From Betaproteobacteria bacterium (GTDB lineage: Bacteria; Pseudomonadota; Gammaproteobacteria; Burkholderiales; SG8-41): DNA of 64,000 nucleotides. This document shows positions 35,678 through 42,674 of this stretch, in pieces. How positions within the stretch are numbered: position 1 is the stretch's first letter; each line of letters starts with the position of its first letter. The notes below the pieces were generated by a model, which was not told the DNA's origin, made no database searches, and worked only from the letters and a program-made list of their open reading frames with translations. The translations under genes and the position numbers were made by a program. The stretch lies in NCBI GenBank assembly GCA_052389535.1, contig JBQTHU010000061.1, forward strand, positions 15,132-79,131, in the 5' to 3' direction.

Positions 35678-35863
35678 ATGAAAAGCACGATCGCTGCGGT
35701 GCTGATGGCGATGACGCTCGCCGGATGTGTGGCGGTGCCCTATGATCCCTCGCCGGGTTACGGCTATTATGCGCCGGGCCCGTATTATTACGGCCCGCCC
35801 GCGACGTTTCACTTCGGATATCACCACTACGGTGGGCGACGCCATCACAGGCATCGTCACTGA
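35678..35863 (+). CDS. Small Tyr/Pro/Gly/His-rich lipoprotein
   Basis: AGGAG RBS; MKSTIAAVLMAMTLAG-C lipobox; His/Arg-rich tail. Confidence 0.8.
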   Translation: MKSTIAAVLMAMTLAGCVAVPYDPSPGYGYYAPGPYYYGPPATFHFGYHHYGGRRHHRHRH

Positions 35864-35872
35864 TGCCGCGCT

Positions 35873-36616
35873 TCAGCGGTAGGCGTTGAGCTGCCCCGCG
35901 CGTTCGACCTCGCCGCTGATCGTCCCGAGCGCGTCCAGGATGCGCGTTCCGGCCGCGCTTGCCGTTTGTTCGTCCCACAGGCCCGGCGGATCGACATGTG
36001 CTGCGATCCTCGCGCGCGAGCCGGCGTACTGCTGAAGAAGGTCGGCCAAAGCCGCGGTGGTAATCCGGTAGCGCCGAAAATCGGCCTCCAGCCGGGTCTT
36101 GTGGCGCACCGCCTGGCTGATCCACGCGCCGGTCCGGTTGTCTGCGCGCATGTGCGCGCGCAGCGTGCCGATGCTGGTGGCGACCTGCCCCCGGTGGCGG
36201 TACTCCGCCGCCCGACGCCGCAGAATCTCGCGGGCGGTGAGGAGATACTCATCCGCAGCGGACGCCAGTTCTTCGATCGACGCGGCATCGATATCGCGCA
36301 GCTTCATCAGGGACTGGTCCGCCGCTATGGCGTGGCGTTCCAGCGCCGTTATGATGGCGTCGTCGTGGGAGGACGAGTCGATTTCACCGCGCAGCGCGTC
36401 GGCCAGCCTGGTACTCGCATCGTGAACCAGCGCGATCACGAATTTGGGGAGGGTGTACTTGCGGTGCTGGCCGTAGCTCCAATAGGCCAGCCAGACGATT
36501 GCGAGCGCGATTGCCGCCCACGCTGCAGCGCGGGTGCAGACTTGTCGCAGCGAATGGCGCGGCCCGCGCCAGCTTTCCGCAAGATCTTCGGCTGCCTCCC
36601 CTTCGTGCCCGTTCAT
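35873..36616 (-). CDS. Hypothetical single-TM helical protein (paralog B)
   Basis: N-terminal TM; strong similarity to 37361-38050; ATGA overlap with the udgX stop. Confidence 0.8.
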   Translation of the reverse strand: MNGHEGEAAEDLAESWRGPRHSLRQVCTRAAAWAAIALAIVWLAYWSYGQHRKYTLPKFVIALVHDASTRLADALRGEIDSSSHDDAIITALERHAIAADQSLMKLRDIDAASIEELASAADEYLLTAREILRRRAAEYRHRGQVATSIGTLRAHMRADNRTGAWISQAVRHKTRLEADFRRYRITTAALADLLQQYAGSRARIAAHVDPPGLWDEQTASAAGTRILDALGTISGEVERAGQLNAYR

Positions 36617-37284
36617 GAGGCGATCACGCGCCGGGCTGCCTGAAGGTCGTCCACGAAGCGGCGGTACGCCTGAGCCTTGGAATCGTCGGGGATGCGCAGC
36701 AGCGCCGAGGGATGCACGGTGATCAGCAAGCGCATGTTCCCGGCCAGCGGCAGCAGCCGCCCGCGGTTGGCCTCCACCGGCGTGGAGCGCCCGAGCAGGG
36801 CGCGCGCCGCGGTGGCGCCGAGCGCCACCACGAGGCGGGGCGCGACGAACTCGAGTTCGCGTTCAAGCCATTGATGGCAGGCATCGATTTCGGCGTGAGC
36901 CGGCTTTTTGTGCATGCGCCGCTTGCCGCGCGGCACGAACTTGAAATGTTTCACCGCATTGGTCACGTAGGTACTCCCGCGTTCGATGCCTGCTTCCATC
37001 AGTGCCCGGTCGAGCAGTCTGCCCGCAGGGCCGACGAAGGGTTGACCGAGGCGGTCTTCCTTGTCCCCGGGTTGCTCGCCCACCAGCATGATGACCGCAT
37101 GCGGTTCGCCTTCACCGAATACGGTCTGCGTGGCGTCCCGCCAGAGCGGGCAGGCACGACAGCCCCGGGCTGCGCGACGTGCTTGCTCGAGTGTCTGGGC
37201 GGGGATGGCCGGCTGCGCCGTGCCCGTGGATCGGCTGACGGGCGGATCGGTGTGGGCCTTCGAGGGGCGGGGCAAGCGGTACAT
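36613..37284 (-). CDS. udgX: UdgX-family uracil-DNA binding protein (family 4 UDG-like, Fe-S); start uncertain
   Basis: CRACPLW, GEQPG, TNAVKHFKF, R-loop KRRMHKKP, HPSALLR. Confidence 0.88.
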   Translation of the reverse strand: MYRLPRPSKAHTDPPVSRSTGTAQPAIPAQTLEQARRAARGCRACPLWRDATQTVFGEGEPHAVIMLVGEQPGDKEDRLGQPFVGPAGRLLDRALMEAGIERGSTYVTNAVKHFKFVPRGKRRMHKKPAHAEIDACHQWLERELEFVAPRLVVALGATAARALLGRSTPVEANRGRLLPLAGNMRLLITVHPSALLRIPDDSKAQAYRRFVDDLQAARRVIAS

Positions 37285-37360
37285 CCGCGGGAAGGAGATG
37301 GAATATGGAGTGCCGCCGGGGACGCGGGTTCCATCGTGATTGCGGGCGCAGTCGGCGCGC

Positions 37361-38050
37361 CTAACGGTACACGCGCAATTGCCGCATGTGCTCCATCTCC
37401 TCACGGGCGTGCGCTGCTGCGGCAATGACGTCTCCCCGCACTGACGCGACCAGTTGCGCGTCGGTAAGCAGTGCGGAGTCTATCTGCGGCAGCATCTTGT
37501 CGCGCGCGACCGGAAAGCTGGCGAGCAGCGTGTCGAGCGCGTTCAGCGCCCGGCTGTAGTCGCGATAGTCCTCTTCGACACACTCCTTCAGACGTACCGC
37601 ACCGGTCACCCACTCGCCCGTGCGATCGTCGGTCCGCATGTGGGTGTCCAGCGTCCGCATGCTCGCCGTAAGGCGCACGCGATGGCGTTGGCTTGAAGCC
37701 CACCGCAGCAGGATCTCGCGACTCGTGAGCAGATAATCGTCCGCAGCGCTGGACAGCTCGGGCAGCAGCGCGCCGTCTGCGCTCTTCACCTTGCGGAAGT
37801 GTGCGTCCACGGTCTCTGCGTCATCGTAAAACTTGCGCAGCAATCCCGGGTTGTCGACCGCAGTCTTCGGCACCTGAGTCGTGAGTGCGGCACGCATCCG
37901 CGCACTGGCGTCCTGGACGAGACCCGAAATCTCTTGGCGTAACTGGTGTTCACGCAGTTCCGCATAGCCCCAGTATCCGAACGCGGACGTTGCCCCCAGC
38001 GCGCCTGCAACCACCAGTGCTGTCCGGGCTTTCAGGATCGAAAACGCCAT
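37361..38050 (-). CDS. Hypothetical single-TM helical protein (paralog A)
   Basis: AAGGAGG RBS; N-terminal TM; similarity to 35873-36616. Confidence 0.82.
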   Translation of the reverse strand: MAFSILKARTALVVAGALGATSAFGYWGYAELREHQLRQEISGLVQDASARMRAALTTQVPKTAVDNPGLLRKFYDDAETVDAHFRKVKSADGALLPELSSAADDYLLTSREILLRWASSQRHRVRLTASMRTLDTHMRTDDRTGEWVTGAVRLKECVEEDYRDYSRALNALDTLLASFPVARDKMLPQIDSALLTDAQLVASVRGDVIAAAAHAREEMEHMRQLRVYR

Positions 38051-38427
38051 GTGCAGCCTCCTTCAGTGGTGTTCATGAACTTTATACATTAAATCAACTT
38101 AGACCTACAAGCCTTTGTCTTAAAAAAGGACACGTTGCTTCAAATTTGCAACACTCGCGCTGTGACAAGCCGGCAGCAGGTCATTCGGTCGTTTGCTGTC
38201 GCCAGATTGCAACGATCCTGATTACGGCGTCGTGCACGCTGTCTTGGAAGCCCGGGGCGACGCCGGTGAAAAGTGAACTTCGCCCTGAAAACCGGCTCAC
38301 ACCGCTTATCCGGCTCGCGTGCCGATCAGGCGCAGAGCGCGCTCTCCAAGCGCGCCATAAATACGCAAGCCGCGCCTCGAAATTTCAAATGCCGTGCGGG
38401 CGCACGATCCAGCGAGAGGTTTGTTAC

Positions 38428-39828
38428 ATGCCGCATGCACTACTGGTGGACGACGACACCAATACGCTTTCGGGGCTGGCAGAGCTTGTCGCGCGCGAAG
38501 GGTTCACAGTCGCAACCGCCTCGAGCCTGCGGGAGGCGCGAGAAAGTTTGAACCAGCGCCACCCGGACGTGGTGGTGCTGGACCTGTGTCTTCCCGACGG
38601 CAGCGGCATGGATCTGTTCAACGACGTGAAGTCACGCGCCGTCACCGAAGTCGTGCTGATCACCGGACACGCAACCCTGGAAAGCTCGATCGAGGCGCTG
38701 CGGCTGGGCGCGGCCGACTATCTGATCAAGCCGGTCAACGTGAAGCAGTTGAAGGCGATCCTGTCGCGCGTGGCGCGCCCCGCCGACCTCAAATCCGAGA
38801 TCCGGGCGCTGCGCGAAGAGTTGCGCGAACTGGGACGGTTCGGGCGCCTGCTCGGCGCGGCGCCCGCCATGCAGCACGTCTACGACCAGATTCAGCGCGT
38901 TGCGCCGACCGCCGCCACGGTGCTCATCACCGGTGAGAGCGGCACCGGCAAGGAACTGGTGGCGCAGACGATCCATGACCTCAGCCGCCGCCGCAAGGAA
39001 CTGTTTCTGCCGGTCAACTGCGCGGCGATCTCGCCCCAGCTCATCGAAAGCGAGATGTTCGGCCACGAGCGCGGCAGTTTCACGGGCGCGACGCGCGAGC
39101 ATAAGGGCTATTTCGAGCGTGCCAGCGGCGGCACGGTGCTGCTCGATGAAATCACCGAAATGCCGGTGGAGCTCCAGGTGAAGCTGCTGCGGGTGCTCGA
39201 ATCGGGCGTATTCATGCGCGTGGGCTCGACCCGCGAAATCGACGTTGACGTCCGCATCATAGCGGCCACCAACCGCGTACCCGAGGAAGCGCTGGCCGAG
39301 GGGAAGCTGCGCGAGGACCTGCTCTACCGGCTGCGTGTCTTTCCGCTGCACCTGCCGCCGCTCCGTGAACGCGGAGAGGACATCGTGATCCTCGGCAATC
39401 ATTTCCTCGACGAAATGAACCGCATCGAGTCGGCGGGCAAGCGCTTCGCCCCGACCGTGCTCGAGCGGCTCAAGGCGTACGACTGGCCGGGGAACGTGCG
39501 CGAGCTGAGAAACGTGGTCCAGCGCGCCTTCATCATGGCCGACGAGGTTCTGGACGAGCACTGCCTGCCGCCGGAACTGAGCCAGGTACGGCCGGGCACG
39601 GGTCCTTTTTTTCAGGTTCGCGCAGGCAGCAAGGTGGCCGACGTCGAACGCCAGCTGATCCTGGCTACGCTCGAGCAGTGCGGCGGCACGAAGGAAAAGG
39701 CGGCGGCGATGCTGGGAATCAGCCTGAAGACACTCTACAACCGGCTGCGCGAGTACGATTCCCGGAAGGACACCCACGCGGGCTCGGCTTCCGCCTCCGG
39801 GTCGCCGGACACGGTGATGGCCGACTGA
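38428..39828 (+). CDS. Sigma54-dependent response regulator (NtrC family: REC-AAA+-Fis HTH)
   Basis: LLVDDD, DLCLPD, GESGTGKE, GSFTGA, WPGNVRELRN, LGISLKTLYNRL. Confidence 0.95.
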   Translation: MPHALLVDDDTNTLSGLAELVAREGFTVATASSLREARESLNQRHPDVVVLDLCLPDGSGMDLFNDVKSRAVTEVVLITGHATLESSIEALRLGAADYLIKPVNVKQLKAILSRVARPADLKSEIRALREELRELGRFGRLLGAAPAMQHVYDQIQRVAPTAATVLITGESGTGKELVAQTIHDLSRRRKELFLPVNCAAISPQLIESEMFGHERGSFTGATREHKGYFERASGGTVLLDEITEMPVELQVKLLRVLESGVFMRVGSTREIDVDVRIIAATNRVPEEALAEGKLREDLLYRLRVFPLHLPPLRERGEDIVILGNHFLDEMNRIESAGKRFAPTVLERLKAYDWPGNVRELRNVVQRAFIMADEVLDEHCLPPELSQVRPGTGPFFQVRAGSKVADVERQLILATLEQCGGTKEKAAAMLGISLKTLYNRLREYDSRKDTHAGSASASGSPDTVMAD

Positions 39829-40870: not shown

Positions 40871-42001
40871 ATGGGACGCGCGCGCGCTGTGGCGCCGGCC
40901 GGTGTGCCGGGTGTCGCTGTGATCTCCGACGGCGGCGCGGCCGGCTGGCTCGAAGTCCTGTCGCGCATCATGAACGTCGGGATGCTCGTGGTCGGTCGCA
41001 CCGGCAGCGTGGAGTTCGCGAGCAACATGGCGCTCGAGCTACTCGCTTGCAAGGATCGAAAGCAGCTGCAGGAGCGCTGGCCTGAACTGCGCCGCCTGCT
41101 GCAGCTCGGAAGTGCTGCTTCGGCCGGCAAGCAGAGACGCGCAAGCGTGGAACTGCCGCAGGCGGGCGGCGTGCGCTTTCTGCGACTTGAACTGCACGCG
41201 CCGCCGGGCGCAACTCCCGGCGGCTGCCTCGTGCTCCTGCGCGACCGGCAGGCCGCGGATGCGCTCGAGACCGACTTGCTGCTCGCGAGCCGGATGCGTT
41301 CGCTCGTGCACGTCTACCGCGTGCTCGCGCACGATCTGAAGGCACCGCTCAACGCGATGCAGCTTACGCTCGAGTTGCTGGCCGACTCCAGCGCATATGA
41401 CGATGCGCTTGACGGTGCAGCCCGGCGCAGGCGGCACGTGGAAGTGTTGAGGGAAGAGCTTGCGCGGCTGAACCGCATTCTTCAGACGATGCTCGACCGC
41501 AAGGAGCCGCTGGAGATGCTGCGGCAGCGCTTCGACCTGCGCGAGGTGATCCGCGAAATCGTCGTGCTGCTCGCTCCGCAGGCACGCGGGCAGCGCGTGG
41601 ACCTGCGCATACTGCTGCCGGACAACGCGGTCTGGCTGCACGGGTACCGGGACCGGATCAAGCAGGCGCTGCTCAACATCGCGATCAACGGGCTGGAGGC
41701 CATGCCGGGCGGCGGGCGGCTCGAGTTGTACCTCAGCGCGGGTGACACGGAACTCAGCGTGAGGATCACGGATACGGGCTCGGGAATTCCCGACGAGCTG
41801 CTCGAAGCGGTCGAGCAGATTTACTTTACGACCAAAAGCGAGGGCAGCGGCATCGGCCTGTACGTGGCGCGGCTGGTGGTCGAGTCCCATGGAGGACAAA
41901 TGGCCGTGCAGAGCAGGACAGGTGCGGGAACGACGTTCACGGTCACGCTGCCGTTGCACAGCGAAATGCCGGCAAGCACGGCGGCTGGAGGGCTGTCATG
42001 A
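40871..42001 (+). CDS. Cytoplasmic sensor histidine kinase
   Basis: H-box AHDLKAPL, N-box NIAINGLEAM, DTGSGI, GSGIGL; no TM segment. Confidence 0.9.
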   Translation: MGRARAVAPAGVPGVAVISDGGAAGWLEVLSRIMNVGMLVVGRTGSVEFASNMALELLACKDRKQLQERWPELRRLLQLGSAASAGKQRRASVELPQAGGVRFLRLELHAPPGATPGGCLVLLRDRQAADALETDLLLASRMRSLVHVYRVLAHDLKAPLNAMQLTLELLADSSAYDDALDGAARRRRHVEVLREELARLNRILQTMLDRKEPLEMLRQRFDLREVIREIVVLLAPQARGQRVDLRILLPDNAVWLHGYRDRIKQALLNIAINGLEAMPGGGRLELYLSAGDTELSVRITDTGSGIPDELLEAVEQIYFTTKSEGSGIGLYVARLVVESHGGQMAVQSRTGAGTTFTVTLPLHSEMPASTAAGGLS

Positions 42002-42231
42002 AGACATCGAAAGAAGGCGATCTCGAGCAGCGCAAGCTGGACGAGCTGAAGCGCGAGTTCCGCTACTGGTGGGGAACGCTGAGCCGGGACGAGATGTTGC
42101 GGCTTGCCGGCAAGCGTGACGAGCTGCTCCTGCTGCTTCACGAAAAATACGGCTATGCCCATCATGAGGCGCAGGCCGAAATCGATCGTGCATTGAAGGA
42201 TCTAGACCCCAGGGTTCATCGCGGAGCATGA
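41998..42231 (+). CDS. Divergent CsbD-like small protein
   Basis: WGTLSRDE...AGKRDEL...LHEKYGYAHHEAQAEID aligns with the CsbD core; GGAGG RBS; ATGA overlap with the kinase. Confidence 0.7.
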   Translation: MKTSKEGDLEQRKLDELKREFRYWWGTLSRDEMLRLAGKRDELLLLLHEKYGYAHHEAQAEIDRALKDLDPRVHRGA

Positions 42232-42314: not shown

Positions 42315-42330
42315 CGGCATGGAAATTGCT
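42315..42330 (+). promoter_or_regulatory. Sigma54 -24/-12 promoter of the DUF883 gene
   Basis: CGGCATGGAAATTGCT matches YGGCAYG-N4-TTGCW; 41 nt upstream of the ATG. Confidence 0.7.
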
Positions 42331-42371
42331 CGCTGGCTGTTCAGGGAGTTCACTGATTGCAGGAGGCGCGC

Positions 42372-42674
42372 ATGAGAAACACGTTGCTCGGATCCGGTTC
42401 TGCGAGGCACGCCGACAAGGTCATTACGGGCTTGAACGAAATGGCCGCCAAGGCGCAGGATCTACTACGGGAGGTGAGTTCGGATATCGGCGACCGGGTC
42501 GATGATACGACCTCGCGGCTCGCGGATGCGGGTGCGAAGGCATCCGACCGCGCACGGTACGCCATCAGCGCGACCGACGACTACGTGCGCGAGAATCCGT
42601 GGAAAGTGCTCGGCGTGGGCCTTGCGCTGGGCGCAATACTGGCGGCGATGCTATTCAATCGGCGGGATACGTAG
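42372..42674 (+). CDS. DUF883 / ElaB-YqjD family tail-anchored protein
   Basis: TDDYVRENPWK followed by a C-terminal TM and RR; AGGAGG RBS. Confidence 0.9.
   Translation: MRNTLLGSGSARHADKVITGLNEMAAKAQDLLREVSSDIGDRVDDTTSRLADAGAKASDRARYAISATDDYVRENPWKVLGVGLALGAILAAMLFNRRDT

Follow-up and report, generated by a model that had tools for sequence, protein, structure and literature searches.

A udgX-coupled gene for a membrane-anchored helical protein in uncultured Burkholderiales, a candidate two-gene stress operon

The conserved unit in the genomic region studied here is a bicistron in which udgX is followed by gene B, and not a three-part system of gene A, udgX and gene B. On balance, we lean towards reading udgX–B as a lineage-specific two-gene stress operon, to which A, an independent paralog of B, merely adjoins. 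The region lies in a 64,000-nucleotide stretch of DNA (hereafter the window), for which the earlier note had proposed that A and B form a membrane complex working with UdgX; the link of UdgX to one of the two paralogs, B, was borne out, and the membership of A and the idea of a defence or sensor trio were not.

The three co-oriented genes, A (229 aa), udgX and B (247 aa), were confirmed as minus-strand open reading frames (Table 1), as was the ATGA overlap between the last two. The paralogy of A and B proposed earlier was confirmed by an alignment with 35% identity over 206 residues (E 4e-37), in which the shared motifs are visible. A hydrophobicity scan gave a single hydrophobic segment in each protein, in agreement with one N-terminal transmembrane segment apiece, and the AlphaFold2 model of the gene A product (pLDDT 87.4) is all-helical downstream of it. 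The ATG of gene A is preceded on its 5′ side by the Shine-Dalgarno sequence GAAGGAGG.

Table 1. Positions in the window of the genes and sequence elements of the udgX region.
Feature	Position	Strand	Remarks
Gene A	37361-38050	minus	229 aa; listed ORF
udgX	36613-37284	minus	223 aa from the likely ATG start at 37284; longer ORF 36613-37425
Gene B	35873-36616	minus	247 aa; B-type paralog; Arg-rich N-tail, one TM segment, helical bundle
ATGA overlap, udgX stop and B start	36613-36616	minus	translational coupling
Putative sigma70-like promoter of A	38081-38110	minus	TTGTAG, 18 nt, TATAAA; read by eye
ECF/sigmaE-like motif	37305-37332	minus	GGAACCC-N16-TCCAT, in the 76-nt A-udgX spacer
Sigma54-type response regulator	38428-39828	plus	divergent; Pfam Response_reg + Sigma54_activat + HTH_8

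UdgX removes uracil from DNA and remains covalently attached to the abasic site that results. By motifs and profile, the udgX product is a genuine UdgX, for which covalent DNA attachment is predicted: it scored 293.1 bits on TIGR03914 against the curated cut-off of 189.95, and aligned at E 1e-58 with 6ail, a solved chain of M. smegmatis UdgX. As the earlier note had recognised, GEQPG and the R-loop histidine (KRRMH) are kept, aligning with GEQPG and KRRIH of the M. smegmatis protein; HPSALLR also lines up, as do all three cysteines within the aligned stretch. Motif A, GEQPG, in which Q replaces the A/G found in family 4, is invariant in all six udgX orthologs, as are the K, R, R and H of the R-loop, and HPSALLR represents motif B of the class, HPS(S/A)(L/V)(L/V)R (class motifs as given in the available text of PMC10359453). 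If read from TTG at 37425, the udgX frame would encode 270 aa and overlap the end of A; the true start is likely the ATG at 37284, since the gene has 222-223 aa in four other loci and the match to M. smegmatis UdgX begins there. The absence of DUF4130 and radical SAM partners near udgX extends to the whole genome of the window, 100% complete by markers, in which neither DUF4130 (PF13566) nor the rSAM partner TIGR03916 was found. Two ORFs flanking udgX in G030 were set aside; they appear to be wrong-frame artefacts and gave no match in Pfam.

A and B represent a previously undescribed family whose members are single-pass membrane proteins, about 200-250 aa long, with an N-terminal anchor and, after it, a four- to five-helix bundle. 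The earlier reader had recognised no family for them, and indeed no Pfam or NCBIfam match was obtained at E <= 1 except for a 12-bit chance row, while a PDB sequence profile search gave a best E of 0.18. Foldseek against the PDB returned only generic helical bundles, none at E <= 1e-3, and the best VIA-align hits (Z 12.1, designed bundles and spectrin repeats) lie within the noise range of that tool for helical models. The ESM Atlas gave no usable match to either protein, and in PHROGs A had no match and B a single row at E 0.021. A few polar residues are conserved in the family (Y106, R111, H137 and W147, A numbering).

At E <= 1e-3 the family comprises about 269 representative clusters, and it is restricted to a few uncultured Burkholderiales lineages, where its genes are normally single. 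The expectation that A/B homologs would be tied to udgX does not hold for the family as a whole, as 94 of 102 A/B-family loci have no udgX nearby and eight do, with 47 of the 98 family genes without udgX flanked on either side by 800 nt or more. Likewise, the family occurs in 12 related genomes, and in ten of them udgX does not adjoin it, the two others being G006 (A-udgX-B) and G004 (udgX-B). By set, udgX is adjacent in one of 16 A/B loci among the genome contigs, in five of 79 from metagenomes and in none of six further genomes of the order. Gene A itself belongs to a 17-row clade of the tree, 13 members of which are without udgX, and is probably an ordinary A-type family copy outside the udgX unit. 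A loss of udgX through recombination of A with B was considered for G003, where the sequence turns to N beyond residue 205 of A and masks the adjacency.

For B, the link to udgX holds. B-type genes form their own clade (support 100/99), all five tree rows of which are udgX-linked, and they lie directly downstream of udgX in six of six loci, counting the partial copy of L055. In four of these six, the start of B overlaps the stop of udgX (ATGA in the window; also in L014, L022 and L105), and in L055 and L061 the two genes are instead 22 nt apart, with a Shine-Dalgarno sequence of the GAGG type in between. Metagenome contig L044 retains an intact A followed by a C-terminal udgX fragment and the last residues of B. 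Hence udgX and B are lost together, and A is gained or lost independently of them: in G004 and L105, udgX–B occurs without A, right after the same intergenic region and response regulator, which speaks against A as part of the system, as do the separate promoter motifs described below.

Such conservation could in principle be fortuitous, if udgX landed beside or between old paralogs in one ancestor and the order was then kept by close kinship, with no functional link. The narrow distribution of the family (7 of 401 genomes of the order), the occurrence of true UdgX in 6 of 41 relatives, three of which have no adjacent AB-family gene, and the fast divergence of B-type orthologs, which share 45-56% identity with each other and have no recognisable active site, are all compatible with such a history. 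We nevertheless consider it quite unlikely, because the overlap or tight spacing is kept in six of six loci despite this divergence, A on the one hand and udgX–B on the other come and go independently whereas udgX and B never do so separately, and the tree does not place the B-type clade as sister to that of the neighbouring A. As a counterpoint, the udgX–B loci all come from one narrow clade, made up of genus-level relatives and of similar contigs from metagenomes, so that gene order could reflect inheritance rather than selection.

The upstream regions suggest separate promoters, a sigma70-like one for A and an ECF-like one for udgX. The sigma70-like block recurs ahead of A in L014 and L042; a scan for sigma70 consensus sequences and terminators did not list the A promoter and gave nothing useful between the genes on the minus strand. 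The putative ECF-like motif ends 21 nt before the udgX ATG in the window, precedes udgX by 38-39 nt in L022, L055 and L061, is found 30 nt past the stop of A in L042, and is missing from L105. Its general form, GGAACYY-N16-TCYNW, occurs upstream of udgX in five loci of three lineages, a count to be read with the motif having been derived post hoc from the very sequences in which it is counted. The loci, 1.27 Mb in all, contain 26 matches and the window two; 14 occur genome-wide when a leading G is included, one of which lies 42 nt upstream of rpoH; in E. coli, rpoH and rpoE are sigmaE targets. The sigma54-type response regulator is 88-96% identical and divergent in all five udgX loci having upstream DNA and is a possible regulator of the region, and a sigma54 promoter scan gave 18 matches against 30 expected by chance, none of them upstream of A or udgX.

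The separate promoter motifs also bear on the model of the earlier note, in which A and B would form a heteromeric membrane complex with UdgX and serve as a uracil-DNA sensor or effector, for example against uracil-DNA phage. The A-udgX-B order does recur, in the window, G006 and L055 and, as A-udgX up to the contig end, in L042; in several other instances the contigs of A-type and B-type protein clusters match in length, which might reflect the same order, and tandem family paralogs without udgX (G001, L050, L052, L058) hint at two copies working together. Against this, udgX–B exists without A in the two loci mentioned and A without udgX–B at most loci, no PADLOC-DB 2.0 family matched A, UdgX or B at E <= 0.1, and the helical domain is probably periplasmic. 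Moreover, the locus is set among housekeeping and stress genes, with BON, CsbD, DUF883 (42357-42674), YetF and glycine-zipper lipoprotein genes as neighbours, and no mobile or defence genes were seen near it. We therefore regard the trio as highly improbable, and the alternative offered in the earlier note, stress-related control of deamination damage, would fit the locus better than a defence or sensor complex.

In 133 of 192 family members the N-side flank of the anchor has the more positive net charge, as against 19 for the C-side, and in three of 218 members the anchor is replaced by a lipobox-like signal. Both the charge bias and the lipobox variants suggest a periplasmic location for the helical domain, which the earlier note had named, together with a lack of predicted contact, as speaking against its model. 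K+R counts alone are nearly equal across the anchor (2.8 vs 2.6), which makes this topology tentative. By eye from translations, the N-tails of B-type proteins have 27-38 residues with 4-8 K/R, and that of B here is Arg-rich and 29 residues long.

If B instead faced the cytoplasm (N-out), it could bind UdgX or the UdgX-DNA adduct at the membrane, as a dedicated regulator, an antidote-like sequestering factor or a platform for crosslink processing. Such a controlling partner would make sense, since UdgX-DNA complexes inhibit growth when uracil is abundant and repair impaired, according to the available text of PMC4787834, and the exclusive udgX linkage with its start/stop overlap and the joint decay in L044 are in keeping with it. 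The basic bundle of B-type proteins (median pI 9.4) would likewise be in keeping with it, but basicity was discarded as a B-specific trait because most lone family members are equally basic. Furthermore, the Arg-rich N-tails would need to cross the membrane, both the net charge around the anchor and the lipobox variants speak for a domain in the periplasm, and no B-like neighbour occurs in any of 13 loci of UdgX homologs elsewhere (0 of 11 without the unpublished genomes L157 and L162), and thus we hold a cytoplasmic B to be unlikely. No longer proteins fusing UdgX and B were found, which is weak evidence, and a complex prediction for UdgX and B (alignments A2 and A3) scored 0.00 and carries no weight for or against binding.

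Taking these results together, it is reasonable to suggest that udgX and B would be transcribed, apart from A, from their own ECF/sigmaE-type stress promoter, that UdgX would work on uracil in cytoplasmic DNA, and that B would be an inner-membrane protein whose short Arg-rich tail reaches into the cytoplasm while its helical bundle lies on the periplasmic side. With UdgX cytoplasmic and the bundle of B periplasmic, the link between them would be common stress regulation, with at most a contact through the tail. As a counterpoint to this stress-operon reading, translational coupling usually suggests stoichiometric partners, and it is more in line with a physical complex than with co-regulation alone. 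One conjecture, which we hold to be distinctly unlikely, is that B-type proteins are the first dedicated UdgX accessory, membrane-anchored and made in a fixed ratio, which would restrain UdgX or help to clear its suicide crosslinks under envelope or nitrosative stress; udgX–B would then be a self-contained damage-marking module with built-in control. In both M. smegmatis and E. coli, phenotypes related to UdgX became stronger with acidified nitrite (PMC4787834, available text), and the literature on UdgX and its operons, in the portions available, describes neither a partner of the B kind nor any regulation. The udgX-coupled gene and the stress-type promoter motif thus offer two handles, on when UdgX is made and with what, and the family of A and B is defined as a small new group of helical proteins anchored in the membrane, although the practical weight of the module is limited by its confinement to one narrow group of uncultured Burkholderiales.

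The usual proteobacterial context of UdgX is the cassette of rSAM, DUF4130 and UdgX (TIGR03916, TIGR03915/PF13566 and TIGR03914), as set out in NCBIfam descriptions. The protein studied here has the same UdgX-type domain, but its gene stands alone, with B downstream and neither partner found in the genome; G019, a relative carrying the family, has a DUF4130-UdgX fusion behind an HhH-containing ORF. In architecture only, A and B may be likened to the DUF883/ElaB-YqjD-type stress proteins, which are also small helical proteins with a single hydrophobic inner-membrane anchor; that anchor is C-terminal in the latter, whereas it is N-terminal in A and B, and the two groups have no sequence match. 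The putative udgX promoter resembles E. coli sigmaE promoters in its -35 element, GGAAC(T/C)(T/C), in its 16-nt spacer and in the occurrence of the motif before rpoH here, but its -10 parts (TCCAT, TCTTA or TCCCA) are without the GTC found in the E. coli -10 element, the E. coli -35 being GGAACTT (PMC6648896, available text). The closest likeness in sequence is to M. smegmatis UdgX, with which the motifs GEQPG, KRR(M)H and HPSALLR are shared; as far as this comparison of sequences goes, the Burkholderiales gene differs in being translationally coupled to the gene for a membrane protein and in being preceded by an ECF-like promoter motif.

The arrangement described in the earlier note, in which udgX lies between the paralogous genes A and B, was confirmed in every particular: the three genes are all on the minus strand, A and B share 35% identity over 206 residues (E 4e-37), and a single ATGA holds both the stop codon of udgX and the start codon of B. 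The udgX start was set at ATG 37284, since orthologs at four other loci are 222–223 aa long with matching starts and the alignment with the solved M. smegmatis enzyme begins just past this codon; the spacer between A and udgX taken from this start is 76 nt. The product scored 293 bits against TIGR03914 (cut-off 190), and its GEQPG, KRRMH, and HPSALLR motifs align with their counterparts in M. smegmatis UdgX (E 1e-58), bearing out the reported retention of the first two. The reported absence of the known cassette partners also held, as no match to DUF4130 or to the radical SAM family linked with it turned up in a search across the window's own genome. In the related genome G006, the udgX ortholog (L014:8690–9255) is missing the N-terminal region with the CxxC cysteines, its first usable start being a GTG at the FGEGE motif; either the gene is truncated or the assembly is in error here.

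Genes and sequence elements of the udgX locus and its surroundings (window coordinates)
Feature	Position	Strand	Remarks
A	37361–38050	minus	ORF, 229 aa
udgX	36613–37284	minus	ATG start at 37284; frame open from TTG at 37425
B	35873–36616	minus	ORF, 247 aa
Small Tyr/Pro/Gly-rich lipoprotein gene	35678–35863	plus	signal ending LAGC; convergent with B
Sigma70-like block upstream of A	38110–38081	minus	TTGTAG, 18 nt, TATAAA; conserved; read by eye
GGAACCC-N16-TCCAT in A–udgX spacer	37332–37305	minus	pattern match
Palindrome GTGA[AG]CC-N13-GAAGTTCA	38274–38300	minus	between sigma54-type regulator gene and A
Sigma54-like CGGCATGGAAATTGCT	42315–42330	plus	2 mismatches to TGGCAC-N5-TTGCW; 27 nt upstream of DUF883 gene at 42357
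77-aa ORF	41998–42231	plus	starts at histidine kinase gene end

That A and B belong to no recognized family was upheld by searches of Pfam, NCBIfam, PADLOC, and PDB sequences, all without a match, and PHROGs gave nothing beyond one weak row. A profile of 20 members of this AB family retrieved 269 representative clusters from 1.84 billion proteins (E ≤ 1e-3), nearly all single-domain and 200–250 aa long, whose source labels, where present, read "hypothetical protein" and refer to metagenome bins of Burkholderiales or Betaproteobacteria; seven of 401 sampled genomes of the order carry the family. The AlphaFold model of A (pLDDT 87.4, pTM 0.79) is wholly helical, with one long helix reaching from the anchor to residue 57 and four further helices, and fold searches with it returned only designed bundles and spectrin-like repeats (best Z 12.1, inside the tool's noise range for helical models). 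The conserved polar or aromatic positions across 116 representatives are Y106, R111, H137, and W147 (A numbering).

The proposal that this family is a udgX partner was not sustained by the neighbors of its homologs. The family is present in 12 of 40 relatives, where udgX adjoins it only in G006 (A-udgX-B) and G004 (udgX-B); adjacency in the relative G003 cannot be judged owing to a run of N at the locus. Among contigs taken from one genome per species, udgX occurred at one of 16 loci, again the G006 contig, and udgX or a piece of it occurred at five of 79 metagenome loci and within 1.5 kb of a family gene in none of six additional genomes from the order. When the collections, which share some loci, are combined, udgX or a remnant of it is present at just 8 of 102 family loci; 98 family genes are without udgX, and for 47 of these the flanking sequence on each side runs to 800 nt or more. 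True UdgX was found in six of 41 relatives (a sample in which the unpublished G014 figures with a score below the cut-off) and, across the class, in 12 of 400 genomes, and none of the 13 UdgX loci outside this lineage had an AB-family member (0/11 without the unpublished-genome loci L157 and L162). It follows that partnership with UdgX is not a property of the AB family in general. G019, a relative from the same family, instead has a DUF4130–UdgX fusion (475 aa, behind an HhH-containing ORF at L121, G019:C10:424790–428473); it lies 9 kb from that genome's lone AB-family gene, so that this genome has both the classical cassette and the AB family, but not side by side.

The family members downstream of udgX (B-type) behave differently from the family at large. 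From 109 extracted family genes, 99 of at least 180 aa with an intact 3′ end were kept, and removal of rows with identical C-terminal 190 residues left 87 in the tree, with both partial genes of locus L055 excluded. Five proteins encoded downstream of udgX form one clade (support 100/99) with no udgX-unlinked member, and counting the partial L055 copy, all six B-type genes follow udgX, four overlapping its stop by ATGA and two starting 22 nt after it behind a GAGG-type ribosome site. Identity to the window proteins is 45–56% for B, 68–79% for UdgX, and 88–96% for the neighboring regulator. Because the B-type clade groups with lone copies of other genera and is not the sister group of A and its relatives, either the A/B paralogy is old or B came from outside.

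A and udgX-B also come and go independently, which speaks against the single three-part system put forward in the earlier note. In G004 and L105, which have no A, udgX-B directly follows the intergenic region and divergent sigma54-type regulator that the window also has, and many A-type genes without udgX-B are followed by the same lipoprotein gene as the window B. At the metagenome contig L044 (780–1250), an intact A precedes the last 70 udgX residues (69% identity), then the last B residues with the stop codon lost, then the lipoprotein gene; this is in-place decay of udgX and B by separate deletions, with A surviving. Homologs of this lipoprotein gene lie after the family gene in L014, L015, L016, L017, L043, L046, L051, and L105, whether udgX-B is present or not. 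Tandem family paralogs without udgX occur in G001 (L019:1284–3098), L050, L052, and L058, independently of the window pair; they represent a separate duplication whose upstream copies form their own clade, and such recurrent pairing may point to two family copies working together. The trio is best split into a lone ordinary family gene, A, and a lineage-specific bicistron, udgX-B.

The spacer ahead of udgX likely holds an ECF-type promoter, as suggested by a GAACYY-N16-TCYNW motif 21–39 nt ahead of udgX in the window, L022, L055, and L061, and 30 nt past the A stop in L042. These five loci represent three lineages with otherwise dissimilar spacers, and the motif is absent altogether from L105. 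The pattern was derived from the udgX spacers themselves, so counts there are post hoc; the background is two matches in the window versus 0.97 expected, 26 in 1.27 Mb of loci, and 14 in the window's whole genome when the leading G is required. In E. coli, sigmaE drives both rpoH and rpoE. The window's genome has GGAACTT-N16-TCTCA 42 nt ahead of rpoH (TIGR02392, 404 bits; contig C1 near 36768) and GGAACCC-N16-TCTAA 46 nt ahead of an MlaC/HpnM-like ORF scoring under its cut-offs (contig C148 near 18396), both being candidate sigmaE promoters; upstream of rpoE (TIGR02939, 335 bits) there is a looser GAACTAA...TCAGT. PMC6648896 gives the E. coli sigmaE elements as GGAACTT (−35) and GTC (−10); the −10 part of the present motif is without the G. 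A sigma54 scan of the window found no sigma54 site upstream of A or udgX; its matches overall, the CGGCATGGAAATTGCT site among them, were fewer than expected by chance. The palindrome upstream of A, present in all five udgX loci with upstream DNA (the window, L014, L042, L022, and L105), may be a binding site of the sigma54-type regulator.

Membrane topology bears on whether A, B, and UdgX could form a defense or sensor complex, as had been proposed. In a set of 192 family members, the 15-residue stretch preceding the anchor contains 2.8 K/R (with the N-terminus included) and 0.27 D/E, against 2.6 K/R and 1.73 D/E in the stretch of equal length that follows it; 133 of these proteins have the more positive net charge ahead of the anchor and 19 have it behind. 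The B-type N-tails, counted by eye, are 27–38 residues long with 4–8 K/R, and three of 218 members have a lipobox-like signal (LAGC, LAAC, or LTAC) in the anchor position. Together these features favor an N-in orientation, with the helical bundle fairly probably in the periplasm, in which case contact with UdgX or DNA would be out of reach for the conserved domain and open only to the short basic tail. By Pfam annotation, stress-type and housekeeping genes surround the locus (BON-domain protein, ABC-F protein, PAS-GGDEF-EAL protein, glycine-zipper lipoprotein, SDR, sigma54 regulator with YetF-like protein, CsbD, histidine kinase, DUF883, PAS-GGDEF protein, and GlnS), and no mobile or defense-like genes were seen around it. 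We consider such a defense or sensor complex unlikely. L014 and L022 both conserve the 77-aa ORF, to which no Pfam family corresponds.

The available text of PMC4787834 describes RecA-dependent handling of the UdgX complex and enhancement by acidified nitrite, and the openly readable UdgX literature surveyed, including the accessible parts of PMC4787834, PMC13705206, and PMC10359453, describes no UdgX partner protein or operon. The udgX-B bicistron, probably under ECF-type stress control judging from its upstream motif, is a new arrangement around the known enzyme UdgX.
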